NCBI GenBank assembly: GCA_902523885.1
Contig: CABZAV010000004.1
Coordinates: 52,761 to 116,760, forward strand
Length of the DNA stretch: 64,000 nt
Source: an uncultured SAR86 cluster bacterium
GTDB taxonomy: Bacteria > Pseudomonadota > Gammaproteobacteria > Magnimaribacterales > AG-339-G14
Reading direction: 5' to 3'
The notes under the pieces were generated by a model that saw nothing but the letters and a program-made list of their open reading frames with translations, was not told the DNA's origin and ran no database searches. Every line of letters starts with the position of its first letter. Within the stretch, counting starts at the first letter, position 1. Of this stretch, positions 22,050-64,000 are shown one piece after another. A program made the position numbers and the translations under genes.

Positions 22050-22613
22050 ATGGAAGATATTTTTAAAAACAATAAAACTTATTATGGATTTCAAGATAGA
22101 GAGATTGAAGATGAAGTTTTAAAAGATCTTTATGAGATGATAAAAAACAATGCGACTTCATTTAATTGTCAGCCTTTAAGAATACTTTTTATCAAGTCTA
22201 AAGAAGCAAAAGCAAGACTCGAACCTTTTGTATTAGATACAAATAAAGAAAAAACTTTGAAAGCACCGGTCACAGCGATTTTGGCAATGGATTTGTCTTT
22301 TTATGAAGATTTATCAAAGAATTTTCCAGCCATGGATGTCAGTTTTTTATTTAAAGACAACCTTGATTTTACCTATCAAACTGCTTTTCGAAATTCATCT
22401 CTTCAAGGCGGTTATTTTATGAAAGCTGCTCACGCTCTTGGGCTGGGAACAGGTCCAATGAGTGGTTTTGATAACAATGGTTTGGATGAAGAATTTTTTA
22501 AAAATAAAAATTGGAAAAGTAATTTTCTTTGTAACCTTGGCTATGGCGATGAAGATCAAACTAGGCCCAGAGCACCAAGGTATGAATTTGATGAAATTGT
22601 AGAAATTTTATGA
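22050..22613 (+). CDS. Nitroreductase-family oxidoreductase (RutE/YdjA-like)
   Basis: 187 aa with family pattern (SFNCQPLRILFI.., LQGGYFMKAAHALGLGTGPMSGFD). Confidence 0.75.
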   Translation: MEDIFKNNKTYYGFQDREIEDEVLKDLYEMIKNNATSFNCQPLRILFIKSKEAKARLEPFVLDTNKEKTLKAPVTAILAMDLSFYEDLSKNFPAMDVSFLFKDNLDFTYQTAFRNSSLQGGYFMKAAHALGLGTGPMSGFDNNGLDEEFFKNKNWKSNFLCNLGYGDEDQTRPRAPRYEFDEIVEIL

Positions 22614-22626
22614 GAAAAGTTTTGAT

Positions 22627-22887
22627 TTGTTTAAACTTGAAAATACGTCAATTGAAATGAATAACGAAGATTACGATTTAATAAGATTTTTAGAATATTT
22701 AAAATACAGAGCAAATCATAATGAAATTCCTTTGCCGATGGACGAGGGATTTATTCTTGAGTCTTTTCATGTAGGAGTAAGATATTTTTTTGGCGTGACG
22801 ATTGATGATAAAGGTCTTCCGATGCACGATGCTGAAGAACCTTATAAAGGGTTTTTAGAAGAATGGATTGAAAGAACAGTTAATTAG
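22627..22887 (+). CDS. Hypothetical protein
   Basis: ORF only, with TTG start or ATG at 22657. No motif recognised. Confidence 0.4.
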   Translation: MFKLENTSIEMNNEDYDLIRFLEYLKYRANHNEIPLPMDEGFILESFHVGVRYFFGVTIDDKGLPMHDAEEPYKGFLEEWIERTVN

Positions 22888-22907
22888 ATTTTAATCGATA
22901 TAAGAGT

Positions 22908-23327
22908 GTGATGTTTTCTATAGTTTTTAACTTTCCTCAAGGTTTTTGGAAAAAACTAGCTTTATTTAGTTTTTCAATTTTTTTTATCAGTGCCGGTATT
23001 GATCATTTTACGAACAAAGAATTTTATCTTTCTATCATGCCGCCAGCTTTTCCATTGCATCTAGAGGCAGTTTATATCAGTGGATTTTTTGAAATTTTAG
23101 GAGGAATAGGTCTTTTATTTGCAAGGCTGAGAAAAATAGCAGCCCTTGGATTGCTTGTTTTGTTAATTTCAGTTTACCCAGCAAACATTTACATGGCGCT
23201 TTATCCTGAAGTTTTTCCACAATATTCAATTGGCCTTCTGTATTTTCGACTTTTTTTGCAGTTTATTGCATTTTATTGGGCTTATTCTTTATCAACGGAA
23301 AGATTTAACCCACAATTACAGATATAA
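22908..23327 (+). CDS. DoxX-like integral membrane protein
   Basis: Four predicted TM helices. AGIDHF...FFEILGGIGLLF resembles the DoxX family. Confidence 0.55.
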   Translation: MMFSIVFNFPQGFWKKLALFSFSIFFISAGIDHFTNKEFYLSIMPPAFPLHLEAVYISGFFEILGGIGLLFARLRKIAALGLLVLLISVYPANIYMALYPEVFPQYSIGLLYFRLFLQFIAFYWAYSLSTERFNPQLQI

Positions 23328-23337
23328 ATAATCTTAT

Positions 23338-23724
23338 ATGAGGAGAGATATGAATAATTTATCAATTTTAAAAATCACATTAAGGATATTTGGATTTGCA
23401 TTCATTTTAATTATGCCCATGATGAAATTAGATCCACTTGGAGGATGGGCTTGGAGTCCAGGACAATGGGAATATGAAATGATGATTCAGGGAGTTTATA
23501 TGACACTTGGGGTAATGATGCTAATTGCAGCGAATGATCCTTTAAAAAATCCTTTATTTGTTTGGTTTGTAGTTTGGAGTAGTTTTGTGCATGGTGGAAT
23601 TATGGCTTTTCAGGCGATAATCGATACCCATGAAATGGGACACTTTCTTGGTGATATTCCAGCTTTATTTATTCTTGCAATAATTGCTGGCTATAATTTA
23701 AGAAAATTACAAACTAGCTCATAA
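23338..23724 (+). CDS. Hypothetical membrane protein
   Basis: 128 aa with several hydrophobic helices. No family recognised. Confidence 0.5.
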   Translation: MRRDMNNLSILKITLRIFGFAFILIMPMMKLDPLGGWAWSPGQWEYEMMIQGVYMTLGVMMLIAANDPLKNPLFVWFVVWSSFVHGGIMAFQAIIDTHEMGHFLGDIPALFILAIIAGYNLRKLQTSS

Positions 23725-23729
23725 ATACA

Positions 23730-24116
23730 ATGGATAAAAAACTTTATAGAAATGGTCCATACGCAGATTTTTTTTCTCAAGGCGTACAAACAGGGAATAT
23801 TCTTACCTTAGCAGGTCAATTGGGAGATGACTTAGAAGGTAATGTTCCTAATGATTTGCAAAGTCAGATGGAAAATTGTTACAAAAATATAGAAACTATT
23901 TTGAAAGAATTCAATGCATCGTTAATTAATATTATTGATGAAACATGGTTTGTAACAGACATAGAAGAATGCATGACTAATGTCGGAGAGATTTTTGATT
24001 CAAGGGAGAAAATTTATGGGTGCAAACCAGAGGTCTCCCAAACTTTAATTGGAGTGTCTGCTTTGGTTGATCCTAAGTATAAAATTGAAATTAAGTGTAT
24101 TGCTTATCTCGAGTAA
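23730..24116 (+). CDS. RidA/YjgF/L-PSP family protein
   Basis: 128 aa. The size and pattern (LAGQLG...NCYKNIETIL...IEIKCIA) fit RidA-like proteins. Confidence 0.6.
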   Translation: MDKKLYRNGPYADFFSQGVQTGNILTLAGQLGDDLEGNVPNDLQSQMENCYKNIETILKEFNASLINIIDETWFVTDIEECMTNVGEIFDSREKIYGCKPEVSQTLIGVSALVDPKYKIEIKCIAYLE

Positions 24117-27765: not shown

Positions 27766-29067
27766 ATGAAAAACAACTTCATAAAAATAAGAAACTATTT
27801 GTATTTAAAAGCCTTTAAGTTTTTGATTGGATTTGAAAGATTCTCAAACAATGGTTTTGCACTTAATATTCTTTCAACTGATTTTATCGACGATCCATAT
27901 TCAACCTATTCGTCGATGAGATCTAAAAAGAAAATCTATTACTCGTCTTCTACTTTTCTTCACTGGGTCACAAATATGGAGTATGTCCAAGATATGCTTC
28001 GAAATAAAGATTTCAGTGTTGATGATAGAAAGTATTCAATTGCAAAAAGGCGTAGAAAAGAATTGATTAAAGATGGCAGGGAAATTATGTTGGATCAATT
28101 TGATAACCCAAGTATCCTTAAATTAGATCCGCCAGATCATTCAAGAATAAGAAAATTAGTATCTTATGGTTTTACAAATAGATATATTTCTTCCTTAGAA
28201 TCAGAAATTAAAAAAACTATCAATGAGTGTCTAGATAAAACTCATGATGAAAGTTCTTTTGATCTGATAGATGCATTAGCCAAACCTCTACCTGCAATTG
28301 TTATAGCTAAAATGATGGGTTTACCCAATGAAGATTTGAATCAGTTTCAGAAATGGTCTGAAGATCTTTTGTTGGAAGTTGGTGGCATTACTTCATCTGA
28401 AATTCAAAGAAAGAAAGCTAGAGACGCATATGAGGAATTAATAAGATATTTTGAAAGAATAATTCTTGAAAGGAAAGACAATCCTGGAGATGACTTTATT
28501 GGCAAGTTAATTCAAGCTGAGGAAGAGGGCGATAAATTAAATGTTAAAGAAATGTTTGGTACATGCTTGTTACTTTTAGTAGCTGGCCATGAAACCACTA
28601 CAAGACTTATTGGGAACGGCTTATTTACTTTATTCAAGCACCCAGAACAATTTAATCATTTAAAAAATAATTTTGATTTGATTCCTAATGCTATTGAAGA
28701 GATGCTCCGATTTGAACCACCAGTTCATGCCACTGTTAGATTTGCACACGATGACATGATTTATGCTGGAAAAAAATTTAAAAGAGGGACTGCATTTGCA
28801 ATTAGTATTGCCGGGGCCAATAGAGATCCTTTGGCTAATAAAAATCCAAATGAATTTGATATTACAAGAGAAAATATTAAGCACGTCTCATTTGGCTACG
28901 GTCCTCATATGTGTATTGGAGCTCATTTAGCCAGGATAGAAACGAAGTTAGCGTTCGAAACTATGTTTGATAGATTTCCTGATATGAAGTTGATAGATAA
29001 AAATCCAGAATGGGGTAAAAATTTTATTTTCAGAGGCTTTGATCATTTAGAAATAAAAGCAAATTAA
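27766..29067 (+). CDS. Cytochrome P450
   Basis: I-helix AGHETT, ExxR (EEMLRF) and heme loop FGYGPHMCIGAHLA. Confidence 0.92.
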   Translation: MKNNFIKIRNYLYLKAFKFLIGFERFSNNGFALNILSTDFIDDPYSTYSSMRSKKKIYYSSSTFLHWVTNMEYVQDMLRNKDFSVDDRKYSIAKRRRKELIKDGREIMLDQFDNPSILKLDPPDHSRIRKLVSYGFTNRYISSLESEIKKTINECLDKTHDESSFDLIDALAKPLPAIVIAKMMGLPNEDLNQFQKWSEDLLLEVGGITSSEIQRKKARDAYEELIRYFERIILERKDNPGDDFIGKLIQAEEEGDKLNVKEMFGTCLLLLVAGHETTTRLIGNGLFTLFKHPEQFNHLKNNFDLIPNAIEEMLRFEPPVHATVRFAHDDMIYAGKKFKRGTAFAISIAGANRDPLANKNPNEFDITRENIKHVSFGYGPHMCIGAHLARIETKLAFETMFDRFPDMKLIDKNPEWGKNFIFRGFDHLEIKAN

Positions 29068-30010: not shown

Positions 30011-30181
30011 ATGTTTGCCTTCTTGATACCTATTATTTGGTTTTTTATTTATATCGGAGTTTATCTTGCATGGGGGTCTTTCAAAAAAGACGAAGGCAAA
30101 AATGAAGATTTTAGTCTGTTTGTTTGTGCTCTGATTGCTTTTTCATTAACTTTTTTGACTATTCCCTTTCTTCCTAGTTAA
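30011..30181 (+). CDS. Unannotated 56-aa two-helix mini membrane protein
   Basis: Translated by hand: MFAFLIPIIWFFIYIGVYLAWGSFKKDEGKNEDFSLFVCALIAFSLTFLTIPFLPS. It starts 9 nt after the Sir2 stop and fills a 172-nt gap. Confidence 0.3.
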   Translation: MFAFLIPIIWFFIYIGVYLAWGSFKKDEGKNEDFSLFVCALIAFSLTFLTIPFLPS

Positions 30182-30728
30182 AAAGTACCAATAATAAAGC
30201 ATACGTACAGGCAAATAATCCAGCAGAAATTGCTTGTACATTTCTATCAATTTTTATTTCTTTTCCAAAAAAATCAATTTCAATAGGTGGGACACCATTT
30301 ACATCATTCAATTTTCCATCATACAAGGGCATAAATAACAAAGCGAAGACAAAGCTCAATAGCCAAATGTATAGCAGAACAATTGAAATAAAAATATTCA
30401 TTTGTGAAGGAATTATCCATAGCAAGAATAAAACAAAAAAACCCGTAACAGCCAACGCATTAACTTGCCATACCAAGTGAAATCTTGAGTGTCCAGTCCA
30501 TAGTGGATTGGTTGCATGAGATTCGTTGAAATCAATTAATGGTGCAATTAGTCCTAGACCTAAACAAATAGAAGAAAGGATGATGCTAGCTATGAAAATA
30601 TTATTGATCTCAGTAAAAAATACTGCCCAAAGGGACCAAAGAATAACTAAACCCGAGATTTTTCCAAATATACTTTGTGCTTTTAGAGCAAAAGCAAATA
30701 ATTTGCTTCTTTTCTGATGTTCCAACAT
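30174..30728 (-). CDS. Hypothetical polytopic membrane protein (last gene of the ring-cleavage operon)
   Basis: 184 aa with ~5 hydrophobic helices. One-nt overlap with the upstream FAH gene. Confidence 0.55.
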   Translation of the reverse strand: MLEHQKRSKLFAFALKAQSIFGKISGLVILWSLWAVFFTEINNIFIASIILSSICLGLGLIAPLIDFNESHATNPLWTGHSRFHLVWQVNALAVTGFFVLFLLWIIPSQMNIFISIVLLYIWLLSFVFALLFMPLYDGKLNDVNGVPPIEIDFFGKEIKIDRNVQAISAGLFACTYALLLVLFN

Positions 30729-31636
30729 TAGCTTTCTTCTTTGGGCATAAATCCTTTAAACATATCAGGAAGATAATCCGCTCTGGGATGATCAGAGACT
30801 CGAATACATTTGTTTTCCATTTCGCCTAATCCTTCTATAGATGTTATTAGTACGTCACCATCTTTCAGAAATATGCCCTGAGTAGCCCCAACTCCTGCAG
30901 GAGTTCCTGTCCAAATTGTATCTCCAGTTTTAAGAGTAACAATTCCTGATAAATAAGAGATAATTGTTGGAACATTAAAAATTAAATCGCTAGTGTTATC
31001 TTTTTGCATAGTTTTACCATTCAATTTGCACTCAAGATCAAGACAATCATAATTATTTAAAGAATCAGGAGATACTAAGTATGGACCCATCGGTCCAAAA
31101 GTATCAAAAGATTTACCAAGATTAAACATAGGTGGTTGTGTTGCGAACTGAGCAGGGCGATCTGAAATATCCTGCCCAATACACATGCCGGCAACATGCT
31201 CCCAGCCATTTTCTACTTTTATATCTTTTCCACCTTGACCAATAACCACAACTAATTCTGCTTCATAATCTACAAAATCACTTCGCAGTTCTACATTATC
31301 TTTTGGTCCGACGAAACAAGAGGTATGTTTTGTAAAAACCATTGGGACCTCAGGTATTTCCATGCCACCTTCTTCGGCATGACCTCTGTAATTTAAACCA
31401 ACGGCATAAGAATTTTTACTTGAAGGAACGGGATTACCTAACTTTATTTCAGATAATTTTCCTGATGGCGGAAAGTCAGTTAGTGAACTAGCTAGCTTTT
31501 TTAATTCTTCTATTGATTCTAGTGCTTGTACACTATCTGAACTGATTTTTCCTTCAGATAATTTTTCGACATCATAATAATTCTCGTCTTGTATTAAGAT
31601 TGCACGATTGTTTGTTGTACCAAGTTTAAAACTCAT
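30728..31636 (-). CDS. Fumarylacetoacetate hydrolase (FAH) family protein
   Basis: VGLNYRGHAEE, EAELVVVIG and GDTIWTGTPAGVG motifs of the FAH fold. Confidence 0.88.
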   Translation of the reverse strand: MSFKLGTTNNRAILIQDENYYDVEKLSEGKISSDSVQALESIEELKKLASSLTDFPPSGKLSEIKLGNPVPSSKNSYAVGLNYRGHAEEGGMEIPEVPMVFTKHTSCFVGPKDNVELRSDFVDYEAELVVVIGQGGKDIKVENGWEHVAGMCIGQDISDRPAQFATQPPMFNLGKSFDTFGPMGPYLVSPDSLNNYDCLDLECKLNGKTMQKDNTSDLIFNVPTIISYLSGIVTLKTGDTIWTGTPAGVGATQGIFLKDGDVLITSIEGLGEMENKCIRVSDHPRADYLPDMFKGFMPKEES

Positions 31637-31646
31637 AATTTCTCCT

Positions 31647-33173
31647 TTATTCTTTATTTAATCCTATTCTTGTTTTTAAATCTTCTATCAATTGAGAGAG
31701 AGATACTTCTTCACTTGTAGAGCCGTATATATATTTATCTGGTCTTATAAGATAAATCTTACCTTCTTCAATCATTGTTGACATCCACATATTAGATTCA
31801 ACTAATTCTTTATCTAAAACTAAAATTTTTGTATCAATAGATGAGAGATAATTTTCCTCTTCTTTGGATAAAACAATTTCATTTGTTGAAACCAAAGAAA
31901 AGTTGTCTCCTAGTAAATAATCACATCTTTCTTTTATTTTGTTTTCACTGAACTTAATTGGTTGAGGAAATAACTGTCCAGACATATATTTTTGATCTGA
32001 CTTTCCATTATAAAAAATACCTTCATTTAAAGGTGGAATTGCAAATGAACCATATCCTTTAGCAACTAGTTCAGCTGGTACATCATCTATATTTTTAGTA
32101 TGAGCATAAGCTTCCATCAATAAGCCAATACCTAAAGAGTTTTCAACTATATATCTTGCGTGATCTTTTCTCTCTATTTGATAATTTTTCAGGAGACTTT
32201 CTCCTAAATTATATTTGTAATCCATACCGATCTTCCAAGATAGATTTTCAGCATCACGACAACCAGTCATCATGCCTTCTCCCATGAAAGGAGGATTTTG
32301 ATGAGCCGCGTCGCCAATCAAATAACAATTATCCTTTTGAAATTCATTAGCTAAGACAGAATGAAATTGATAAATAGCTTTTCTTAGTATTTTATATTCT
32401 TCTGGCTTTAACCATGGAGAAAGTAGTTTTTTTATATTCTCATCCGAAGAAAATTCATCGATATTATCGTCATCGTGAATTTCAAATTCCCATCTTTTAA
32501 ATGGAGAATGAGTCGGGATAAATGTCCCGATTCTCTTGGGATCACAAATTTGGATCGCAAAATCTCCTAATTCCTTTTCTACTAGCAATTCAATATCTAT
32601 GATTATCCAATCTCTGTCATAATTTAAATCTTCTTGCTCAATTTTTTTTAATTCTCTAACTTTACTATTTGCTCCGTCAGCACCGATAAGATATCTGCAC
32701 TCTAGGTTTAAAACTTCATTTTTCTGAAGATCTGTAATTGCACATTTAGTTATTTGGCCAGCATCATCTATATTTGTTAATTCATGCTCAACAAATACGT
32801 CGCATTTAGAATTTAATAGTTTTTCTCTTATCTCTCTATCTGTATAAGGCTGATGAAAAAATTGCATAGGTGGCCATCCATTATGAGTATTCAAACCTTT
32901 CATAATCATCGGATCACCTATAAATTCTAAATTTTCATTAACGAATCCCGCACCTCCTGGGATATCGCTATTTCTTATATAAACTTCATCTAGACATAAA
33001 GATTGATGCATTCTCATACCTTGATCACTCATGCTGACAGCCCTAGGAAGAGGGTAAATATCCTTTTCTTTATCTATGGCTAAAACCTTCATTCCTTGCT
33101 GTTCCAACTTCAAAGCCATAAAACTTCCTACCGGGCCAAGACCTATTACTATTGCATCGTATCTAGATTCCAT
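31647..33173 (-). CDS. FAD-dependent aromatic-ring hydroxylase (MhpA/PheA-like group A flavin monooxygenase)
   Basis: GxGxxG (VIGLGPVGS), DG motif (IGADGANS) and GDAAHQNPPFMGEGMMTGCRDAENLSWK. 508 aa. Confidence 0.88.
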   Translation of the reverse strand: MESRYDAIVIGLGPVGSFMALKLEQQGMKVLAIDKEKDIYPLPRAVSMSDQGMRMHQSLCLDEVYIRNSDIPGGAGFVNENLEFIGDPMIMKGLNTHNGWPPMQFFHQPYTDREIREKLLNSKCDVFVEHELTNIDDAGQITKCAITDLQKNEVLNLECRYLIGADGANSKVRELKKIEQEDLNYDRDWIIIDIELLVEKELGDFAIQICDPKRIGTFIPTHSPFKRWEFEIHDDDNIDEFSSDENIKKLLSPWLKPEEYKILRKAIYQFHSVLANEFQKDNCYLIGDAAHQNPPFMGEGMMTGCRDAENLSWKIGMDYKYNLGESLLKNYQIERKDHARYIVENSLGIGLLMEAYAHTKNIDDVPAELVAKGYGSFAIPPLNEGIFYNGKSDQKYMSGQLFPQPIKFSENKIKERCDYLLGDNFSLVSTNEIVLSKEEENYLSSIDTKILVLDKELVESNMWMSTMIEEGKIYLIRPDKYIYGSTSEEVSLSQLIEDLKTRIGLNKE

Positions 33174-33176
33174 TCT

Positions 33177-34730
33177 TTATTTTAATTTTTTTACAAAATA
33201 GAAAATTATAAAAATTAATATAACAAATGCTATCAAATAATATTTGAATGCCTGTATTAAGATCCAAATACTAATAAGGATAGTGGCAATTAAAGATGGA
33301 GGATTGTTAAATTCATAATTTCCATCGAGCCAAGGGGATCCTAACTCAGTTCCTCCTTGCCTATCATCACCATATAAATATGCGTGAGCAGGATTCATAT
33401 CTCCTACTACATCTCTTTCCGGCAGAGAAGTAAGTACTTTTTTCATTTCTTCCAATATTTTCGGTTCAGATTTAGATAAATCATTTTTTTCAAAAGGATC
33501 TTCAATTATATTAAATAACTTATATGTTGGAGAAACTGAAAAAAGCTGAGGTTTAGATGAATAAAGTTTCCACTCATTGTTAAACAAAGCTCTTTCATCT
33601 GCTTGAATTCTTGCTCCAACGAAAGCATTTTTTGGTGAAATTATTTTATTATTTATTAAATTATTCCATTTATCTTTACCATCAAAATTATCTTTTTCAG
33701 CTAGCTTTGTTCCTGAGGCCGACAATAATGTAGGTAGTAAATCTTGCACAAAAATAAATTGATTTGATTTGGAATTTTCGAGAACTCCTTTCCACCAAAT
33801 TACAGCTGGTACTCTTATGCCTCCTTCCAGAGCAGAACCTTTGCTACCACTAAGATTTCCAGGACTACCTTTTGCGTTCAGTAAATTTGGGCCAATTACT
33901 CTAGCTATTGCGCTTGTATCAAAAACTGGTCCATTATCACTGAAAAAAATTATTATCGTTTCATCTAAGATTCCTTTTTTTTCGATGGCTTTTAAAATTC
34001 TTCCTATTTCGCTATCTAGTGAGCTGATATTTGCTGCGTACAATTGATCTCTTTTATCTTCAATGTGAGAAAAAGCTTCAATATTTTTCAAAGGAGCTTC
34101 TATTGGAGTATGTGGGGCATTAAAGGCTATGTATAAAAAAAGAGGGCGATCATTATCTTTTTCGTTAATGATATCGATTGCCTCAGAAGCAATTAATTCA
34201 GTGGAATAACCATCTTCTCTCAAGGGCTTTGCGTTTCTATGCCAATCTAATCTGCCTGACGCAGTATGATCAAAATAACCAATGCCACCAGACATGTGCC
34301 CATAACTTGTATCAAAACCACGATTGGTAGGCCAAAACTCTTCTTTGGCCATACCTAAATGCCATTTCCCTGATAGAGCAGTTTGGTATCCTGCTTCCTT
34401 AAAGTATTCAGGCATAATTTTTAATTCAGGCGGCATGCCTGTTTGTTCTGCGGCTGGATTCATAAAAGGTCTCACAACACCATGATTGAAAATATGTAAT
34501 CCAGTTAAGAGTGATGCTCTAGTCGGACTGCAAACAGGATTGGCATAAAATCTATTCAACTCTATTCCGTCCTCAGCAAGTTGATCAATATTAGGTGTTG
34601 GTATGAATCCACCATGATAAGAAACATCTCCCCAGCCTAAATCATCGGTTAATATGATTATTATATTAGGCTTATCGGTCGAAAATAAATTTATTGAACA
34701 CGTTAATAACGTGAATAATAAATACCGCAT
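33177..34730 (-). CDS. Cys-type arylsulfatase with C-terminal membrane anchor
   Basis: Signal peptide, formylglycine motif CSPTRASLLTG, GKWHLG and DNGP. The last ~45 aa are strongly hydrophobic (LIATILISIWILIQAFKYYLIAFVILIFIIFYF). Confidence 0.92.
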   Translation of the reverse strand: MRYLLFTLLTCSINLFSTDKPNIIIILTDDLGWGDVSYHGGFIPTPNIDQLAEDGIELNRFYANPVCSPTRASLLTGLHIFNHGVVRPFMNPAAEQTGMPPELKIMPEYFKEAGYQTALSGKWHLGMAKEEFWPTNRGFDTSYGHMSGGIGYFDHTASGRLDWHRNAKPLREDGYSTELIASEAIDIINEKDNDRPLFLYIAFNAPHTPIEAPLKNIEAFSHIEDKRDQLYAANISSLDSEIGRILKAIEKKGILDETIIIFFSDNGPVFDTSAIARVIGPNLLNAKGSPGNLSGSKGSALEGGIRVPAVIWWKGVLENSKSNQFIFVQDLLPTLLSASGTKLAEKDNFDGKDKWNNLINNKIISPKNAFVGARIQADERALFNNEWKLYSSKPQLFSVSPTYKLFNIIEDPFEKNDLSKSEPKILEEMKKVLTSLPERDVVGDMNPAHAYLYGDDRQGGTELGSPWLDGNYEFNNPPSLIATILISIWILIQAFKYYLIAFVILIFIIFYFVKKLK

Positions 34731-34763
34731 GTTGTTACCCTTTACTAGTTGAAAACAGTTAAT

Positions 34764-35774
34764 TTAGCCGTTTCTTCTATCACCAAAAGTAGCAAAATTA
34801 ATATCTGGCCCCCACTGAGAAGGGCCCGGCCCATCTGACTCTAAACCATCTTTGGTGACATCTACTTCATTTGGAGGAAAAGTATTATCAAAGTAATCTC
34901 CATCAGTTTGATGTTCATGTGTTTGCTTAAATGGACTTCTCCAGTAATCAAATACTTGCGCTCCTTGATAATGTCTTCCTACACCCCATTCTAATTCATA
35001 ATTAAATTCTTCTTTGTTTCTTTGTAAAATTTCATGACCCCTTAAGACATCATCTATTTGTAACATTTCAAAAGAAACGTGATTTAATCCAGGCTTTCCT
35101 TCAGATACCATAGGCGCAGGTAACCAAAAGATCGTATGATGATCGGCTGGTTCTAATCCTTTATCCAATCTCGCAAAAATACCCATCATTGGAGTATTGG
35201 GGTCTTTTGGATCTCCTGCAAAAAGTTTATCTGTTGCGATAATGCCTAAATGTTCGTTGTACCACTCAAGTGCTGCAGGAATATCATTTGAATTGATTCC
35301 GTAGTGACCAAATCTAACTATTGAGGGCGGCGCACCTTTAACATATCTTTTTCTTTCATTTATTCTATTTACTTGACCACCTTCATTACTGGATTGAGGC
35401 AGAAGAGTTTGATAATCATCTCTGTCCTTGATGCCAAAACATACTTCTACACCAATTCCATCTAAGTCTGCTCCTCTAGAGATAAAGCCTCCTCCCGGAG
35501 TTTTTAATTCTTCAACATCAGAAAAAGCGTCTGTTTTACTAATTTTTTCTAAATCTTCCATGGAAGAAGCTATGTAAGTTGCCCCTAGAAATTTCTTTTC
35601 GCCTTTTTTACAAACTTCTATAAATGGTTGTGGACCATCACCACGCATTATCAGAGCTTCTTCAGTTTTTTCAACTGTGTGCATTCCAAAATGCAATAAA
35701 AATTGTTCTTGGATATCTAAATCTGGACATTGCAACGTGCAATATTGAACTCCTATAGCTTTTATTACAGACAT
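34764..35774 (-). CDS. Two-domain VOC-superfamily extradiol ring-cleavage dioxygenase-like protein
   Basis: 336 aa. Pattern FGHYGIN ... LNHVSFEM ... GVGRHYQGAQVFDYWRSPF..HEH resembles type I extradiol dioxygenases (His, His, Glu ligands). Confidence 0.7.
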   Translation of the reverse strand: MSVIKAIGVQYCTLQCPDLDIQEQFLLHFGMHTVEKTEEALIMRGDGPQPFIEVCKKGEKKFLGATYIASSMEDLEKISKTDAFSDVEELKTPGGGFISRGADLDGIGVEVCFGIKDRDDYQTLLPQSSNEGGQVNRINERKRYVKGAPPSIVRFGHYGINSNDIPAALEWYNEHLGIIATDKLFAGDPKDPNTPMMGIFARLDKGLEPADHHTIFWLPAPMVSEGKPGLNHVSFEMLQIDDVLRGHEILQRNKEEFNYELEWGVGRHYQGAQVFDYWRSPFKQTHEHQTDGDYFDNTFPPNEVDVTKDGLESDGPGPSQWGPDINFATFGDRRNG

Positions 35775-36574
35775 TATTTTTCCTCCATTAATTTCAATAC
35801 TTCTTCTTTTACTTCCCCTCCAAAAGCACCCATCATTTGGACTAGTGATGAAGGAAGAAGATTAGTTACAGCTTTATCATAAAATTCTAAATTTCTAACT
35901 TTTTTATACCAATTATTAATTTTTGGTCTTTTATTTTCACTAAACGCTTCAAATAAAGATAAATGATCAAAACGAAGAATATAGGGAAGGGTACAAGCAT
36001 CAGCTAGACCAAATTTGTCTCCTGCTATCCACCCGCTATCCTCGATAATATTCTCTAAATTATCTAAAAGTTCTCCAGCTTTTTTCAATGAGTTAATTAC
36101 TATTGGTGCTTGAATACCTTTTTCCATTGTTTCTTTCCTTGCCTGTCTTTTTACAGGATCTGGAATGCTATCTAAATCTGCTTGTTTGTCTTCGTTAGAT
36201 TTATCCATTTGTAAACGCCTTACAGCAATTCCGTATGTAATAGGACCAGTATATTGTTGGAAATTATCAATTTGTTTCATCCATAGCCTAACTTTATGTA
36301 TGTCTTCTGGTGAAGAAGGTCTTGCGGGAATTTTAGGAAATGCATCATCCAAGTATTCAAGAATAAGATTTGATTCTATTAAAATACCGTTATCTGTAAC
36401 TAACGTAGGAACGACATGATTTGGGTTAAGTTTTACATATTCAGGATCATGTTGTTCTCCAGCCAGCAAATTAACTTCTTTAGATTCATAAGGAAGTTCT
36501 TTTAATTCTAAAATTAATCTTACTTTTTGAGAGCAAGTTGAAGGTCCATGGTGATAAAGGGTTAATGAGGTCAT
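35774..36574 (-). CDS. Glutathione S-transferase family protein (GDAP1-like N-terminus)
   Basis: LYHHGPSTCSQKVRLILELKELPYE...VPTLV..ESNLILEYL is a thioredoxin-like GST N-domain. 266 aa. Confidence 0.8.
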   Translation of the reverse strand: MTSLTLYHHGPSTCSQKVRLILELKELPYESKEVNLLAGEQHDPEYVKLNPNHVVPTLVTDNGILIESNLILEYLDDAFPKIPARPSSPEDIHKVRLWMKQIDNFQQYTGPITYGIAVRRLQMDKSNEDKQADLDSIPDPVKRQARKETMEKGIQAPIVINSLKKAGELLDNLENIIEDSGWIAGDKFGLADACTLPYILRFDHLSLFEAFSENKRPKINNWYKKVRNLEFYDKAVTNLLPSSLVQMMGAFGGEVKEEVLKLMEEK

Positions 36575-36594
36575 TTTTTTAATATATTACAAAC

Positions 36595-36609
36595 GTGACA
36601 TTATGTCAC
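36595..36609. promoter_or_regulatory. Perfect 6-3-6 palindrome GTGACA-TTA-TGTCAC (candidate operator, copy 1)
   Basis: Read directly. It sits in the 43-nt spacer between the SDR stop (36618) and the GST start (36574). Confidence 0.4.
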
Positions 36610-36617
36610 TTTAAATA

Positions 36618-37391
36618 CTATAAAAGTCCAGGTGCAGTTCCACCGTCTACTGTAATGCTTTGTCCATTTATAAAAGCAGCTTGTTTCGAACACAAAAAAG
36701 TGCAAATGCCTGAAAACTCCTCAACAGTTCCCATTCTCTTAGCAGCCAAACCATCCTCTACATTTTTTCTAGCCTCTTCATATGAGATTCCTGCTAAGTC
36801 TGCTTGAAAATTAATAATTCTTGTTTGGCGATCTGTGTCAATCCTTTCTGGCAGAAGACTATTTATAGTTACATATTTAGCAACGTCCTTTGATAACGCT
36901 TTAGAGAGACCATGCAGAGCAGAGCGCGCTGAAGTAGACAAACCCATTATCAAATGAGGATTTTTAACCATGGCCGAAGTAATGTTTACAATACGGCCAA
37001 ATTTTCTATCCATCATTCCGGGGATCACAGCTTGCATTAACAACGCAGACTGAGTGAAATTTGATTTAATTGCTCCAAGAAAATCTTCCTCGCTCCACTT
37101 GAAGAAATCTCCTGGAGGAGGGCCACCACTGTTATTTATGAGAATATCCGGATCTGGACAAGCCCTTAATAAATCTTCTCTTGTTGTTGAATCTTCCATT
37201 GGTCCTAAAATTGCAGTAACTTTATAACCCTTTTCATGAAATTCTTTTTCTGTTTTTATCAAATTTTCTTCTTGAATTCCATTGATATAGATTTCAACAC
37301 CCTCTATTGCTAAACTTTCAGCACAGGCTTTTCCTAGACCTCTACTTGAGGCACATACGATTGCTTTTTTATTTGAAATCCCTAAATCCAT
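36618..37391 (-). CDS. Short-chain dehydrogenase/reductase
   Basis: VCASSRGLGKA cofactor motif, NNSGGPPPG and the Ser..Tyr/Lys region. 257 aa. Confidence 0.88.
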   Translation of the reverse strand: MDLGISNKKAIVCASSRGLGKACAESLAIEGVEIYINGIQEENLIKTEKEFHEKGYKVTAILGPMEDSTTREDLLRACPDPDILINNSGGPPPGDFFKWSEEDFLGAIKSNFTQSALLMQAVIPGMMDRKFGRIVNITSAMVKNPHLIMGLSTSARSALHGLSKALSKDVAKYVTINSLLPERIDTDRQTRIINFQADLAGISYEEARKNVEDGLAAKRMGTVEEFSGICTFLCSKQAAFINGQSITVDGGTAPGLL

Positions 37392-37507: not shown

Positions 37508-37522
37508 GCGACATTTTGTCAC
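37508..37522. promoter_or_regulatory. Palindrome GCGACA-TTT-TGTCAC (candidate operator, copy 2)
   Basis: Same 6-3-6 architecture as 36595-36609, with 11 of 12 arm positions identical. It lies ~88 nt upstream of the receptor ATG at 37610. Confidence 0.4.
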
Positions 37523-40271: not shown

Positions 40272-40892
40272 ATGGAACAAAATCAAGAATTATCATCTGA
40301 AGAAAAATTAATTGATGCTGCTGTGGAACATCTTAATAAAGAAGGATTAAATAATTTCACTGCTACTGTTTTAACGAGATCGGCAAATTTAGGCTACGGA
40401 ACATTCTATAAATATTTTTCGTCAACAGAAGATGTTTTAGAAGCGGCAATAAAAAAAAATGTTACAAATTGGTCTCACATAAATTTTGAATCAAATAAGA
40501 AAGAACCAGATCGTTTGTTAGCTTTTTTAGAAGCTATTTACAAAACGATTCTTCAAATTAGTAATAATGCTTCTATGAGATGGTTATTAGAGAAACCAAA
40601 TTATTTTGTTGAAATATATTACGAGCTTACATTCGACCATGCAAAAACTGATGTAGAGTCTGCAGTAAATAATGGTCAGCTAAATAAAGAATTTCTCAAA
40701 AATTTTGATACCACTTTTAAACTAATTTTGTGGCAGATATGTGGTGGAATGTCTCTAATTGACGAAGGGTATAATTATAATGATATTGCTTTAGAATTAA
40801 TTAAATTAATAATTCCTAATAGTGTGGGAGAGGAAAACGCAAAGGAAATTTGTAGAAAATTAGAAAAAAGAAACACTCAAAAGATATTTTAA
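40272..40892 (+). CDS. TetR-family transcriptional regulator
   Basis: N-terminal HTH pattern (LIDAAVEHLNKEGLNNFTATVLTRSANLGYGTFYKYFSSTEDVL). 206 aa. Confidence 0.8.
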   Translation: MEQNQELSSEEKLIDAAVEHLNKEGLNNFTATVLTRSANLGYGTFYKYFSSTEDVLEAAIKKNVTNWSHINFESNKKEPDRLLAFLEAIYKTILQISNNASMRWLLEKPNYFVEIYYELTFDHAKTDVESAVNNGQLNKEFLKNFDTTFKLILWQICGGMSLIDEGYNYNDIALELIKLIIPNSVGEENAKEICRKLEKRNTQKIF

Positions 40893-40894
40893 TT

Positions 40895-42262
40895 ATGAAG
40901 TTAAATAGTGATTTACAACCCAAGTTAAAAATAAATAGCCCAGCATACGAGCCTGTAGATTTATTTTTAAGAGATTTCGACTTAACGGATGTTTTCTTAT
41001 TTGAAAAAGGACAACCCTTTGAACAATATAAAAAACTTAGAGAAAATTCACCAGTTCATTTTCATGAAGCAGGAATAGGAGACAGTGAACCAGGTTTTTG
41101 GGCACTCACTAATTATAAAGACATAGAGCACGTTTCAAAAAATCAAAAAGTATTTTCATCACAATTAGCAAGCGGAACTACTCTTACCTTAGGATATTCT
41201 CAAGAAGTAAGTATTGATCAATTATTTAGATCTGCTTTAGATCATATGTTGGGAACAGATGATAAGTTGCATTTGTCGATGCGTAATCCACATATGAAAT
41301 TTTTTACACCAAAATACGTTGAGGAATTAAGAAAAAAAGTTTCTCTTAAAGTCACCGAGTTATTAGATGAGATAGCTCCATTAGGAAAATGCAATTTAGT
41401 AGATTCAATTTCTTCTGAGCTCCCTATATTTTCGTTAAGTGAAATCTTAGGAGTGCCAGAGGAGGATAGGCCAAAAATAAAAGAGTGGATGACTTTTTTA
41501 GAAATGGCTCAAGTAGTTGGTGCTACTCAAGCGGCCGCAAAAAATAACATTGAACTAAATGAAGATCAACAAGCCTCAGCTCCAGATCCCGCAATGATTG
41601 CAATGTTTACAAATATAGTTAAAGAAATGTTTGATTACGGAAGAGAAATACTCTTGAAAAGAAGAAAAGATCCTAAAGATGATCTGCTATCGGTTATTGC
41701 TAATATGGAGATTGAGGGCAAGAAACTTCCTGACGAATATCTAGATGGATCTTGGTTGCTAATAATTATTGCTGGAAATGAGACAACAAGGAATTCGATA
41801 AGTGGAACAATAAAGTTGCTTACAGAGAATCCAGATCAAAAAGAAAAACTTATTAATCATATGGAGTTACTACCAAACATGACTCACGAAGCAATAAGAT
41901 TGATTTCTCCAGTAATTTATATGAGAAGAACAACAAGGGAAGAAACTCAAATTGGAAATCAAAAAATAGGACCTCACGAAAAAGTGGTAATGTATTACGG
42001 GGCAGCTAATAGAGACCCAGAAATTTTTGACAACCCCGATAGATTCGACATAGAAAGAGAAAATGCAAAAAAACACTTGGCCTTTGGATATGGAAGGCAT
42101 TTATGTTTAGGAAAACATATGGCAAATATGCAACTATCTGAAGTCTATAAGCAAATTTTAACTAGGTTTCCTGATATGCATCAGAGCGACGAATGGAAAG
42201 TGGTTCCTAATAATTTTACTCATTCTATATCTGAAATGCCCGTTTCATTTAAAGCTGAATAA
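40895..42262 (+). CDS. Cytochrome P450
   Basis: I-helix AGNETT, ExxR (EAIRL) and heme loop FGYGRHLCLGKHMA. Lies 2 nt after the TetR stop. Confidence 0.92.
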   Translation: MKLNSDLQPKLKINSPAYEPVDLFLRDFDLTDVFLFEKGQPFEQYKKLRENSPVHFHEAGIGDSEPGFWALTNYKDIEHVSKNQKVFSSQLASGTTLTLGYSQEVSIDQLFRSALDHMLGTDDKLHLSMRNPHMKFFTPKYVEELRKKVSLKVTELLDEIAPLGKCNLVDSISSELPIFSLSEILGVPEEDRPKIKEWMTFLEMAQVVGATQAAAKNNIELNEDQQASAPDPAMIAMFTNIVKEMFDYGREILLKRRKDPKDDLLSVIANMEIEGKKLPDEYLDGSWLLIIIAGNETTRNSISGTIKLLTENPDQKEKLINHMELLPNMTHEAIRLISPVIYMRRTTREETQIGNQKIGPHEKVVMYYGAANRDPEIFDNPDRFDIERENAKKHLAFGYGRHLCLGKHMANMQLSEVYKQILTRFPDMHQSDEWKVVPNNFTHSISEMPVSFKAE

Positions 42263-44770: not shown

Positions 44771-45154
44771 ATGAGTGTTAACTTTAAAGGCTATTCAACA
44801 ATAGGAACCAATAATAAGGAAGCTGCCGAGACTTTTTACGATGGATTGCTTGCACAACTTGAGCCCAAAAAACTTCTCGCAAACGATAGGATAACAATGT
44901 GGTTATCGAAAGAAGATGGATCTGTCATTTTAGCTATAGCAATCCCTTATGACGGAAATACAGCTCATCATGGTAATGGAACAATGAAAGCTATTGCGCT
45001 AGGTTCTCATGAAGAAGTAATAAGTATGTATGACAAAGCTATTGAACTAGGCGCTAAAGACGATGGCGCACCAGGTATGAGAGCAGGGCAATTTTATGGA
45101 GCTTATGTTTATGATTTAGATGGCAATAAACTATGCTTTTTTAATATGGGCTAA
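44771..45154 (+). CDS. VOC (glyoxalase/bleomycin-resistance) family protein
   Basis: 127 aa. C-terminal YGAYVYDLDGNKL is typical of VOC proteins. Confidence 0.65.
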   Translation: MSVNFKGYSTIGTNNKEAAETFYDGLLAQLEPKKLLANDRITMWLSKEDGSVILAIAIPYDGNTAHHGNGTMKAIALGSHEEVISMYDKAIELGAKDDGAPGMRAGQFYGAYVYDLDGNKLCFFNMG

Positions 45155-46314: not shown

Positions 46315-46316
46315 AA

Positions 46317-63832: not shown

Positions 63833-64000
63833 AGTTTAAGAATTCTTTTATATGCGATCCTATCTCATCTGGAGAATGTTCCTGAATAAAATGATTACCC
63901 TTCACGGACACTTCTTTTAAGTTATTCCAGCTTCGCACAAATTCTCGTTGGTCGCCGATTAAAATAGATCCAGGTTCAGCATTTATAAATAGTTTAGGGA
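63825..64000 (-). CDS. Haloalkane dehalogenase (LinB/DhaA-like), C-terminal 57 codons; 5' end beyond window
   Basis: Not in the ORF track. The hand translation of the minus strand is PKLFINAEPGSILIGDQREFVRSWNNLKEVSVKGNHFIQEHSPDEIGSHIKEFLNSI*. It is nearly collinear with the LinB C-terminus (PKLFINAEPGAL...AHFIQEDSPDEIG), including the catalytic His. Confidence 0.85.
   Translation of the reverse strand, partial: PKLFINAEPGSILIGDQREFVRSWNNLKEVSVKGNHFIQEHSPDEIGSHIKEFLNSI

Follow-up and report, generated by a model that had tools for sequence, protein, structure and literature searches.

Why does a sulfatase gene lie within a run of genes for the hydroxylation and cleavage of aromatic rings? We address this question for a 64-kb stretch of DNA (64,000 nucleotides; hereafter the window) from a SAR86 bacterium (Magnimaribacterales) with a 1.1 Mb, 88% complete genome. 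ORF calling recovers exactly seven minus-strand ORFs at positions 30174-37391, with junction gaps, from the SDR end, of 43, -1, 33, 3, 10, and -1 nt. Together with Pfam and NCBIfam searches, which back each family assignment of the first six genes, this agrees with an earlier note on the sequence, which had described seven co-directional genes with gaps of -1 to 43 nt. The receptor, TetR, and P450 genes that it placed beyond the operon are also present (Table 1). All cytoplasmic enzymes of the cluster score under the NCBIfam equivalog thresholds. The window also encodes P450s, an acyl-CoA synthetase, and a thiolase, and DoxX and RidA genes lie close by.

Table 1. Features of the sulfatase cluster and its surroundings, in window coordinates.
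Feature	Position	Strand	Basis or remark
RutE-like nitroreductase ("malonic semialdehyde reductase")	22050..22613	+	NF003768
Small polytopic membrane protein, 184 aa, DUF6640-like	30174..30728	-	Language-model features; last gene of operon
FAH-family enzyme, 302 aa, HpcE/HpaG-like or beta-diketone-hydrolase-like	30728..31636	-	PF01557
Group-A FAD aromatic monooxygenase (FMO), 508 aa, MhpA/phenol-hydroxylase-like	31647..33173	-	PF01494 (FAD_binding_3)
Cys-type S1 sulfatase, 517 aa	33177..34730	-	PF00884, CSPTR motif
Two-domain VOC protein, type I extradiol-dioxygenase-like, 336 aa	34764..35774	-	Glyoxalase family, profile search, AF2/Foldseek
GST, 266 aa	35774..36574	-	Pfam GST_N + GST_C
Operator-like palindrome GTGACA-TTA-TGTCAC	36595..36609	.	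Overlaps -35 of promoter-like site just upstream of GST gene
SDR oxidoreductase, 257 aa	36618..37391	-	Pfam adh_short; first gene
Second operator-like palindrome GCGACA-TTT-TGTCAC	37508..37522	.	SDR/receptor divergent region
TonB-dependent receptor, 865 aa	37610..40207	+	Plug domain; divergent from operon
TetR-family regulator	40272..40892	+	TetR_N
Cytochrome P450	40895..42262	+	Starts 2 nt past TetR gene

The sulfatase matches PF00884 at 6.8e-59 and looks catalytically competent from its alignment, in which the CSPTR motif, D29, D30, K122, H124, H207, D265, N266, and K297 are invariant. The protein has a signal peptide at its N terminus and, near the other end, a hydrophobic anchor (about residues 478-513) that is conserved together with the tail motif W489-I-L..A..K, which predicts export and attachment to the membrane by the C terminus. 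Both sulfatases of the host genome are membrane-anchored. The closest solved structures are carbohydrate 4-O-sulfatases (S1_19, S1_7, and ARSB), which counts against the aryl sulfatase reading of the earlier note, although the kinship is remote (1e-56 to 1e-61; 5e-48 for AtsA of Pseudomonas aeruginosa, S1_4). The nearest relatives outside SAR86 share 36-45% identity, and the SAR86 sequences form a clade of their own (support 100%) on a long branch. Within this clade, the clustered forms are successive basal branches and the unlinked forms of two sister genera (g2 and g4) are nested among them. Thus, the linkage of the sulfatase with ring-cleavage genes is probably ancestral in the SAR86 clade. 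The absence of FGE and anSME genes, first noted for the window, extends to the whole 88%-complete host genome and to near-complete relatives (91-97%), with no FGE in five genomes and no anSME in four. No CAZymes or extra sulfatases adjoin the gene in a Pfam survey of the cluster and its flanks. Polysaccharide use is therefore unlikely, in line with the earlier note.

The ring-modifying enzymes belong to recognizable families. The FMO matches FAD_binding_3 at 1.5e-48 and reaches 365 bits with NF004829, just under the cut-off of 390. It is the only homologue of its kind in the family genomes tested, and the copy in sister genera g2-g4 is merely 32-36% identical. The VOC protein has weak full-length matches to HpaD (the best), BphC, and HsaC in NCBIfam, and a profile search retrieves 3b59 (2.8e-24), HsaC, catechol 2,3-dioxygenases, and HPCD. 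Its AF2 model (pLDDT 71.8) is closest in Foldseek to 3b59, DHBD, AphC, LapB, and HPCD, with TM scores of 0.60-0.65, whereas PcpA-type hydroquinone dioxygenases go unmatched even at E<=1 in the profile search. The predicted fold is thus that of catechol extradiol dioxygenases and not of the gentisate/hydroquinone type. The metal ligands, which the earlier note had singled out, are kept: the triad H157, H232, and E287 is invariant, as are H212/H213, H268, and Y277, and from triad and fold the protein looks competent. The FAH-family enzyme (PF01557, 1.5e-58) matches 6v77, a "putative HpcE", at 9.8e-60, L-2,4-diketo-3-deoxyrhamnonate hydrolase at 3.4e-41, and HpaG at 7.8e-41; it scores far below the curated fumarylacetoacetase threshold (22 bits vs 375).

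The remaining products are harder to place. The GST has N- and C-terminal domains, a Ser/Cys-Ser-Gln-Lys N-terminal motif with S12 invariant in 12 SAR86 GSTs, and a long interdomain linker. In the PDB it is most similar to LigF (3.7e-17), with GDAP1 at about 1e-13 in the N-domain only; maleylacetoacetate isomerase (maiA) likewise matches in the N-domain only and under the curated cut-off (81 bits vs 171). The SDR (adh_short, about 6.5e-30 to 3.6e-29) is closest to an uncharacterised Burkholderia SDR (9e-62). Its gene is paired with the VOC gene in sister genera (75-78% identity), ends a type-B cluster, as described below, in G054 (71%), is absent in G028, and is probably its own transcription unit. 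The seventh product is hydrophobic and has no Pfam family; homologues lie behind the FAH gene in locus L054 (33% identity) and, in G054, where the fetched stretch ends, some 4.5 kb from the MMSDH gene (51%). The RutE-like nitroreductase, 8 kb from the cluster (NF003768, 241 bits vs a cut-off of 152), is a possible accessory of the system because its homologue (274 bits) sits inside type-B clusters. Membership of the P450 is uncertain; its gene is syntenic in G029 and G028 and absent from type-B clusters. The GST, RutE-like, and VOC families of the host could also serve in quinone or electrophile detoxification.

We find that the cluster occurs in six genomes (G000, G025, G026, G028, G029, and G030) and as a fragment in G032. 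The seven-gene order is conserved within one genus and not beyond it. Sister genera g2, g3, and g4 have an orthologue of the sulfatase (55-77% identity) 45-78 kb away from the VOC, FMO, and FAH genes, which shows that the genes need not be physically linked. By contrast, all 12 genomes of a second SAR86 family (f3) that carry the sulfatase clade have it only a few kb from FMO, GST, VOC, and/or FAH paralogues. Gene orders there differ, comprising a type-B arrangement and two others; the ten type-B clusters add TetR, RutE-like reductase, and MMSDH genes, with a receptor in most, and their FAH enzymes share 54-60% identity with the one described here. Public MAG and SAG loci (L054-L057, L059, and L060) agree with this pattern. 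Since the genes are syntenic in the genus and the same families recur around the sulfatase in f3, the arrangement is not due to chance.

Regulatory sequences point the same way. The receptor (Plug domain, 1.1e-15) is kept beside the cluster in genus g1, and homologues (38-61% identity) occur inside type-B clusters. In four g1 loci, the TetR gene (TetR_N, 5.3e-08) keeps its place downstream of the receptor, and type-B clusters embed a TetR in FMO-TetR-sulfatase units. The window holds two sites of the 15-nt palindrome (0.21 expected), one at the GST-operon promoter and one in the receptor/SDR region, and this pair is kept in all four orthologous loci examined. The GST-promoter copy is in the same position in L032, L034, and L035, and both copies lie in the GST/receptor gap of L033, which has no SDR gene; neither was found in 25 other loci checked. 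Type-B clusters carry a different palindrome, TAGTCA-N2-TGACTA, which lies in promoter regions, namely those of the unit containing the sulfatase, of the VOC unit/receptor, and of the FAH gene, and has only six sites in 2.09 Mb of fetched DNA. Separate transcription units thus share conserved operators and regulation, and the TetR protein likely binds the palindromes. Metatranscriptome contigs from different studies span the FMO/sulfatase, FAH/FMO, and membrane protein/FAH junctions; as assemblies that may contain DNA, they hint at co-transcription but fall short of proof that the genes share one transcript. The functional tie of the sulfatase to the hydroxylase, dioxygenase, GST, FAH enzyme, and receptor that the earlier note proposed is sustained by their repeated occurrence together in rearranged clusters, by the operators that they share, and by these contigs. 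The gene order, whose conservation the note wished to see tested, holds in one genus only, a macroalgal or seagrass source of substrate is unlikely for a pelagic SAR86, and GST isomerisation followed by FAH hydrolysis is no more than a candidate order of steps.

We consider it somewhat probable that the locus is a TetR-controlled catabolic island for an aromatic (phenolic) compound that is imported as its sulfate ester. The analysis establishes which genes are present, their topology signals, catalytic motifs that are intact, operators that are conserved, and recurrent linkage in two SAR86 families, whereas we infer what class of substrate is used, in what order the steps run, and what the GST, SDR, and membrane protein do. 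The TonB-dependent receptor would carry the anionic ester into the periplasm, where the exported sulfatase, its C-terminal helix in the inner membrane, would strip the sulfate. The phenol, less polar once the sulfate is gone, could then enter the cell, perhaps helped by the DUF6640-like membrane protein. In the cytoplasm, the group-A flavin monooxygenase would add a hydroxyl, and the two-domain extradiol-type VOC dioxygenase would cleave the ring. Ring fission would give a dicarbonyl on which the FAH-family enzyme might act, either hydrolysing a C-C bond or working as a decarboxylase/isomerase. Accessory steps would fall to the SDR and to the GST, the latter by thiol-dependent isomerisation, dehalogenation, or quinone handling. 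SAR86 is a very abundant small-genome ocean bacterium, and the genes point to an undescribed route for consuming sulfate-esterified aromatics in seawater.

The substrates possibly also include halogenated phenolics. Haloalkane dehalogenases (HLDs) and GSTs recur beside SAR86 sulfatases, a dehalogenase-type link that the earlier note did not foresee. Alpha/beta hydrolases exceed the HLD cut-offs in an overlapping HLD-sulfatase-GST triplet of g3 (367 bits vs 241), at the flank of L054 (299 vs 265), and, with two GSTs, in the host's second sulfatase operon (328 vs 265). HLD genes flank several f3 clusters, and 3 of the 11 host GST genes are in its two sulfatase operons. A substrate both halogenated and sulfated (bromophenol or halo-hydroquinone sulfates, or chlorosulfolipid-like alkyl sulfates) would refine our main reading rather than oppose it. 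GSTs, and HLDs in related loci, would remove the halogen, as in lin/pcp lower pathways (LinB, LinC, LinD, LinE, and PcpB), and the SDR-GST-VOC order parallels LinC-LinD-LinE. We regard this as a tentative option, since the cluster in the window has no HLD (the nearest is about 27 kb off), the VOC protein is unmatched to PcpA-type enzymes at E<=1, and no GST here attains any dehalogenase model. Furthermore, some of the adjacency could be chance because HLD genes are fairly frequent in the host (three to four copies).

It is improbable that the sulfatase acts on sulfated lipids (sulfoglycolipids, or sterol or alkyl sulfates) while its neighbours work on other membrane-derived parts or unrelated substrates. 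Sulfoglycolipid desulfation has been proposed for SAR86 aslA/arsB-type sulfatases (PMC11582366). The membrane anchors of both host sulfatases would fit amphipathic substrates, the g2 gene lies between two receptors and a DedA/VTT membrane protein, and the P450s, acyl-CoA synthetase, and thiolase of the window are compatible with lipids. However, the sulfatase gene has neither a lipase nor a glycosidase gene linked to it, its recurrent partners come from families of ring hydroxylation and ring cleavage that have a common operator with it, and a general family assignment across the cluster and its flanks shows no KshA/KstD-type genes. TetR, GST, nitroreductase-type reductase, VOC dioxygenase, and FMO are a typical set in quinone/hydroquinone resistance regulons. 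A stress regulon against quinones and electrophilic phenolics, comparable with Bacillus MhqR/CatR, yielding no carbon and with the sulfatase unmasking or handling conjugates, would also suit the nearby DoxX and RidA genes. It is nevertheless quite unlikely: the cluster has its own TonB-dependent receptor, which shares the operator and so implies active uptake, the FAH, MMSDH, and RutE-like enzymes send products to central metabolism, and a streamlined 1.1 Mb genome retains the cluster. Least credible, and already strongly disfavoured, is a chance adjacency without common function that arose as one genus streamlined or rearranged its genome. The exact order is genus-specific and the genes are dispersed in g2-g4, but in f3 the same families accompany the sulfatase in every one of the 12 genomes, in three different arrangements, and conserved operators are common to the transcription units.

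Sulfated aromatic compounds remain our preferred substrates, and the system resembles several known ones in part. With homoprotocatechuate/catechol meta-cleavage (HpaB/phenol hydroxylase, HpaD/C23O, HpaE, HpaG/HpcE) it shares a hydroxylase, a type I extradiol dioxygenase, and an HpcE/HpaG-like FAH enzyme; the best NCBIfam match of the VOC protein is HpaD, its fold neighbours are HPCD, C23O, DHBD, and HsaC, and the best PDB match of the FAH enzyme is a putative HpcE. However, it has no hydratase, aldolase, or tautomerase, scores far under equivalog cut-offs, and adds a sulfatase, GST, TonB receptor, and membrane protein, while type-B clusters hold MMSDH and a RutE-like reductase in place of HpaE, HpaH, and HpaI. 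The hydroxylase, GST, and FAH signature recalls gentisate/homogentisate pathways (hydroxylase, cupin dioxygenase, GST-zeta maleyl isomerase, FAH hydrolase), the evident model for the earlier note, but the ring-cleaver is a VOC protein rather than a cupin, and the GST and FAH enzyme fall short of maiA (81 vs 171 bits) and fumarylacetoacetase (22 vs 375). The sphingomonad chlorohydroquinone systems lin/pcp (LinB HLD, LinC SDR, LinD/PcpC GST, LinE/PcpA VOC, PcpB FMO) share five superfamilies and the SDR-GST-VOC order. This likeness is at superfamily level only: the SAR86 VOC protein is catechol-type and not PcpA/LinE-type, neither a sulfatase nor a TonB receptor is known from lin/pcp systems, and halide chemistry in the SAR86 cluster is only a candidate. 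The "arylsulfatase A" of Freel et al. 2024 (PMC11582366) is of the same gene family and bacterial order, and that paper also notes many GSTs, VOC "catechol dioxygenases", and nitroreductases in SAR86. Its text, as far as term searches reach, makes no mention of a sulfatase/ring-cleavage linkage, operators, an HLD association, or a missing maturase. Finally, unlike AtsA and the carbohydrate sulfatases, the SAR86 enzyme has a C-terminal anchor, lies outside any sulfur-starvation ats operon or polysaccharide utilisation locus, and belongs to a host genome in which no FGE or anSME was detected; with AtsA, S1_19/S1_7, and ARSB it shares the full catalytic set of formylglycine-type S1 sulfatases.

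The host genome (1.11 Mb in 15 contigs, 88% complete, G+C ~33%) belongs to SAR86, an order (Magnimaribacterales) of four families, referred to here as f1 to f4, which agree in genome size with the four families described in PMC11582366. ORF calling reproduces the seven closely spaced minus-strand genes described in the earlier note, with gaps of 43, -1, 33, 3, 10, and -1 nt between them, and Pfam and NCBIfam searches upheld every gene family that had been named from the sequence, the SDR included. None of the proteins encoded by the cluster reaches an equivalog cut-off, so naming beyond the family level is not justified. P450 genes lie on both sides of the cluster and share 27 to 29% identity; neither has a redox partner nearby, and synteny with the TetR gene is seen only for the right-hand copy.

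Features of the cluster, its surroundings, and the loci compared with it
Feature	Position	Strand	Description
Seven-gene cluster	30174-37391	-	Co-directional genes
Sulfatase	33177-34730	-	PF00884, motif C67-S-P-T-R
FMO	within 30174-37391	-	PF01494, group-A flavin monooxygenase
FAH-family protein	within 30174-37391	-	PF01557
GST	within 30174-37391	-	N- and C-terminal domains
VOC	within 30174-37391	-	Two domains
Last product of the operon		-	184 aa, hydrophobic, without an assigned family
TonB-dependent receptor, TetR, P450, MscS channel		+	Opposite strand, in this order
P450 genes	27766-29067; 40895-42262		On both sides of the cluster
GTGACA-N3-TGTCAC	36595-36609		20 nt upstream of the GST gene, overlapping a promoter-like -35
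GTGACA-N3-TGTCAC, second copy	37508-37522		Gap between SDR and receptor
TGACA-N3-TGTCA, third	G000:C2:152842-152854 (L133 3043-3055)		Host genome, inside a 148-aa ORF
TAGTCA-N2-TGACTA	L055 1633, 8920; L059 6636, 9363; L005 9905		Sites in fetched loci
Metatranscriptome contig	32086-33277		Spans the FMO/sulfatase junction
RutE-like gene	22050-22613		241 bits (cut-off 152)
RutE-like, DoxX, DUF6632, RidA genes	22050-24116		In this order
Cys/Met-PLP and PALP genes	45151-47288		In the window
Cys/Met-PLP and PALP genes, g4	L045 10609-12836		Cysteine synthase/CBS-like; abutted by the sulfatase
Two HLD-like genes	~63834-64000 onward (G000:C4:116594-118582)		At and past the right window edge
Second sulfatase operon	G000:C1:153379-160467 (L134 379-7467)		Outside the window; SSF symporter-HLD-GST-DUF1330-GST-155-aa membrane protein-sulfatase
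HLD-sulfatase-GST triplet, g3	L041 8114-11616, also L040, L042-L044		GST of 305 aa
Split sulfatase orthologue, g4	G037:C1:347246-348794		Two overlapping ORFs, residues 1-322 and 317-517

The VOC protein has the two VOC domains and the C-terminal 2-His-1-carboxylate triad of type I extradiol dioxygenases. Across eleven aligned family members the triad (H157, H232, and E287) does not vary, nor do H212/H213, H268, and Y277, and in the family profile the triad positions match the ligand positions of HsaC. Loss of the metal ligands, which the earlier note had named as a refuting result, is thus not observed. Against PDB, the same profile finds 3b59, catechol 2,3-dioxygenases, and homoprotocatechuate dioxygenase. 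The AF2 model (pLDDT 71.8, and just 65 to 90 in the C-terminal domain) adopts a two-domain extradiol fold, with TM scores of 0.60 to 0.65 to 3b59, DHBD, AphC, LapB, HPCD, and HsaC. The protein falls below the equivalog cut-offs for HpaD (31.7 bits vs 321), BphC (28.6 vs 366), and HsaC (20.6 vs 450), and likeness to the PcpA/LinE type was not found: none of the 41 PDB hits obtained with the family profile (E ≤ 1) is a PcpA chain.

The FMO (508 aa) combines an FAD_binding_3 domain (1.5e-48, residues 5-346) with a C-terminal extension, which places it in group A; it shows just distant kinship to any solved structure. It scores below the cut-off of NF004829, an MhpA-like 3-HPP hydroxylase subfamily (365 bits vs 390), which is exceeded by the FMO of locus L054 (411.6 bits), a public locus with the type-B layout described below. 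The FAH protein belongs to the FAH superfamily (1.5e-58) and reaches no equivalog cut-off; its closest matches are a “putative HpcE,” diketo-deoxyrhamnonate hydrolase, and HpaG. The GST resembles GDAP1 and zeta-class enzymes in its N-domain only, and stays below the cut-off for zeta maleylacetoacetate/maleylpyruvate isomerases (TIGR01262; 81.4 bits vs 171, residues 6-98 only). It also stays below that for LigF-type beta-etherases (NF042997; 20.3 bits vs 440), although LigF is nevertheless its best PDB match (3.7e-17). Serine 12 is invariant in 12 SAR86 GSTs.

The sulfatase (6.8e-59 to its Pfam family) carries the motif C67-S-P-T-R71-ASLLTG of formylglycine-type S1 enzymes. CSPTR is unchanged in the six orthologues and paralogues aligned, and D29, D30, K122, H124, H207, D265, N266, and K297 are invariant in the same alignment; we take these residues to be the metal and catalytic set (DD, K-x-H, H, DN, K) of S1 sulfatases. 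The protein begins with a signal peptide and ends with a ~35-residue hydrophobic stretch closing in KKLK. Tail, motif, and expected catalytic residues are all invariant despite just 55 to 74% identity among the aligned sequences. The enzyme is therefore predicted to be anchored in the inner membrane with its catalytic domain on the periplasmic side. An AF2 model built from the 6-sequence alignment was rejected (pLDDT 44.5).

The best named homologue is “arylsulfatase [SAR86 cluster bacterium].” By PDB E-values, the closest solved relatives are carbohydrate 4-O-sulfatases of S1_19 and S1_7 together with human ARSB (1e-56 to 1e-61), followed by Pseudomonas AtsA (5e-48) and choline sulfatases (1e-16 to 1e-20). 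A tree of 94 natural homologues unites the SAR86 sulfatases in one long-branched, fully supported clade. The next relatives of this clade are from other Gammaproteobacteria and are just 36 to 45% identical; remoter homologues from Bacteroidota, Planctomycetota, and Verrucomicrobiota are located in multi-sulfatase loci. No SusC/SusD pair, CAZymes, or several sulfatases, as in a polysaccharide utilization locus, occur within ±10 kb, in line with the initial suggestion that the cluster does not serve sulfated polysaccharide use.

The absence of FGE and anSME from the window, also noticed at the outset, extends to the genome and the relatives searched. FGE (PF03781) has no match in the host genome or in five relatives (G007, G022, G026, G029, and G035), and anSME (TIGR03942) has none in the host genome or in four (G007, G026, G029, and G035). 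The relatives, which include a single-contig genome, are 91 to 97% complete, and the host genome is 88% complete. Each of these six genomes nonetheless encodes Cys-type S1 sulfatases. Cys-type sulfatases are matured in E. coli without FGE and without anSME, so the missing enzymes do not rule out sulfatase activity. The route by which Cys-type sulfatases mature without either enzyme is a question of general interest.

Within the genus of the window (g1), the complete gene order is retained in three other genomes. A fourth is without the SDR gene and carries an extra receptor, and in two additional genomes the cluster is interrupted by contig ends. The region was unmatched in a DNA-level search of the g1 genomes G027 and G031 (88% completeness). 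Across the family, an orthologous sulfatase is present in 38 of 49 genomes. In the sister genera g2 to g4 it is 55 to 77% identical and located elsewhere: flanked by two receptors and a DedA/VTT protein in g2, inside an overlapping hydrolase-sulfatase-GST triplet in g3, and adjoining Cys/Met-PLP and PALP genes in g4. The VOC orthologue is nearly universal (43/50 genomes); in g2 to g4 it is paired with the SDR and a divergent FMO paralogue, 45 to 66 kb from the sulfatase. Conservation of gene order, which the earlier note had set as a check, therefore holds inside g1 and fails in g2 to g4, where the sulfatase stands apart from VOC and FMO. This dispersal of the genes in sister genera indicates that the seven-gene operon was put together in one genus.

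In the window, the Cys/Met-PLP and PALP genes lie ~10 kb from the sulfatase, with VOC-GST-SDR, the receptor, TetR, P450, MscS, and others between. Compared with g4, this arrangement suggests that an ancestral sulfatase locus was rearranged or received an insertion. One g4 orthologue (G037) is split into two ORFs, probably by a frameshift or sequencing error.

The central finding comes from outside the family. The same sulfatase clade, at 53 to 64% identity, occurs in low-GC gammaproteobacterial MAGs and SAGs, where its neighbors are FMO, TetR, GST, VOC, a nitroreductase-type reductase, a receptor, FAH, and, in a single case, the small membrane protein. We surveyed all twelve clade-bearing genomes of f3 (four genera). 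Ten share a layout that we call type B, MMSDH <> FMO-TetR-sulfatase-(GST) <> reductase-VOC-GST <> receptor-FAH-(GST)-(SDR), differing slightly in the receptor and the genes downstream; in two of the ten, the sulfatase lies ~3 kb past the MMSDH gene and not after TetR. In the other two genomes (type F), the sulfatase adjoins FAH, a single-domain VOC, and GST, with an FMO also present in one. The partner proteins in f3 are paralogues just 22 to 60% identical to those of the window, and the gene order differs. The association has thus been retained despite extensive rearrangement. In the sulfatase tree, clustered forms branch off one after another at the base, and the unlinked g2 and g4 forms arise from within them, which suggests an ancestral linkage that was lost twice. 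The clade is present in f1 and f3 and was not found in the remaining two families, f2 and f4 (none of 30 and none of 20 genomes searched). The 30 are from the family whose genome size corresponds to the large-genome family of the one cultured SAR86 strain named in the literature consulted.

Shared palindromes point to common control of these genes. Two 6-3-6 palindromes are observed in the window against 0.21 expected. Two copies occur in four of four orthologous loci, in the same two places except in L033, the g1 locus without the SDR gene, where the GST/receptor gap contains both; protein identity across the four loci is just 50 to 94%. GTGACA-N3-TGTCAC was found in none of 25 other loci and in no type-B cluster. 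Type-B clusters have a palindrome of their own, TAGTCA-N2-TGACTA, in MMSDH/FMO, GST/receptor, GST/FAH, and receptor/FAH intergenic regions, with just six sites in 2.09 Mb of fetched DNA. The palindromes of both lineages thus give the sulfatase-containing unit and the ring-cleavage genes a common putative operator, and in g1 and in the type-B locus L059 the receptor also falls under the common palindrome. The neighboring TetR is the obvious candidate to bind these sites.

A Paracoccaceae MAG of 61% G+C has one more TAGTCA-N2-TGACTA, ~100 nt ahead of a VOC gene of 61% identity, a hint that this gene and its operator moved jointly by horizontal transfer. A third TGACA-N3-TGTCA in the host genome, ~430 nt upstream of another GST gene, was rejected as a regulon member, as it lies within an ORF; it is probably due to chance, since a reversed-pattern control gave a similar count.

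Assembled, low-depth metatranscriptome contigs from four marine studies cover most of the cluster at 90 to 99% identity. Single contigs span the FMO/sulfatase junction and, just barely, the FAH/FMO junction, and contigs in two studies span the membrane-protein/FAH junction. These assembled contigs, in which DNA carry-over is possible, are compatible with co-transcription.

The most economical interpretation is a regulated five-step pathway of uptake, desulfation, and ring cleavage. The receptor would take up the substrate, which would be desulfated in the periplasm, at the membrane; the resulting phenol would enter the cell and be hydroxylated, and the ring would then be opened by extradiol cleavage, with further processing by FAH, GST, and SDR. 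It has been suggested that SAR86 arylsulfatases desulfate sulfoglycolipids [PMC11582366], a viable reading that leaves the conserved partners and the common operators unexplained. A role in detoxification is less likely, because the importer is part of the regulon, and adjacency by chance is effectively excluded. Two further candidates were rejected. Classical steroid 9,10-seco degradation lacks KshA/KstD-type proteins among the families assigned in the cluster and flanks and has no place for GST and FAH; piracy of sulfated catechol siderophores has only generic receptor similarity in its favor.

The substrates of the proposed desulfation and ring-cleavage pathway may be halogenated in addition to sulfated, as suggested by recurrent links with haloalkane dehalogenases (HLDs) and GSTs. 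The genome encodes two sulfatases. The second (549 aa), also membrane-anchored, though by an N-terminal anchor, belongs to an operon whose hydrolase is an HLD (NF002043, 328 bits vs a cut-off of 265). The hydrolase of the g3 triplet, annotated from L041 and L043, is likewise an HLD (NF002938, 367 bits vs 241), as is one flanking a type-B cluster (299 bits vs 265), and several f3 clusters are flanked by HLD genes. The two sulfatase operons hold 3 of the genome's 11 GST genes. The second operon is syntenic in G025, another g1 genome, and not in g3; we therefore rejected it as a conserved unit and recognize recurrence of the theme only. Of the HLD-like genes at the right window edge, one scores 314 bits, above its cut-off; the 1.1 Mb genome has three to four such genes in total. 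Literature searches on SAR86 dehalogenases and chlorosulfolipid sulfatases gave nothing relevant. Why GSTs and HLDs accompany sulfatases in this lineage is a wider question.

The type-B reductase is a RutE-like “malonic semialdehyde reductase” (274 bits vs 152) and the type-B aldehyde dehydrogenase is an MMSDH (487 bits vs 448). Together with the RutE-like gene of the window, this suggests malonate semialdehyde as an end product of the canonical cluster. Speculatively, a 1,2,4-triol could undergo extradiol cleavage to formylacetyl-pyruvate, which FAH would split into pyruvate and malonate semialdehyde.

We give only a slim chance to the fullest version of this scheme, in which two of the four SAR86 families would share a conserved, operator-controlled pathway that mineralizes sulfate-esterified, possibly halogenated phenolics from plankton. 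In it, a membrane-anchored sulfatase, matured with neither FGE nor anSME, would remove the sulfate in the periplasm; hydroxylation to a triol, extradiol cleavage of the triol to an acylpyruvate, and FAH hydrolysis to pyruvate and malonate semialdehyde would follow. These products would account for the MMSDH and RutE-like genes of the canonical cluster. If true, this would be a ring-cleavage route so far undescribed and a defined sink for organosulfate dissolved organic matter in the surface ocean.

SAR86 accounts for several percent of the bacteria in the surface ocean, and most of what is said about its diet is inferred; with 1.1 Mb of genome, each operon kept counts. The cluster joins one of the genome's two sulfatases to ring-cleavage chemistry and a dedicated importer, and offers a testable hypothesis for aromatic sulfate esters, perhaps halogenated, as a class of dissolved organic matter. 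We know of no described bacterial catabolic route for this class, and the searchable literature yielded no cluster, characterized or described, that combines a sulfatase with ring cleavage. The window's RutE-like, DoxX, DUF6632, and RidA genes resemble quinone/hydroquinone stress modules and also the reductase inside type-B clusters.
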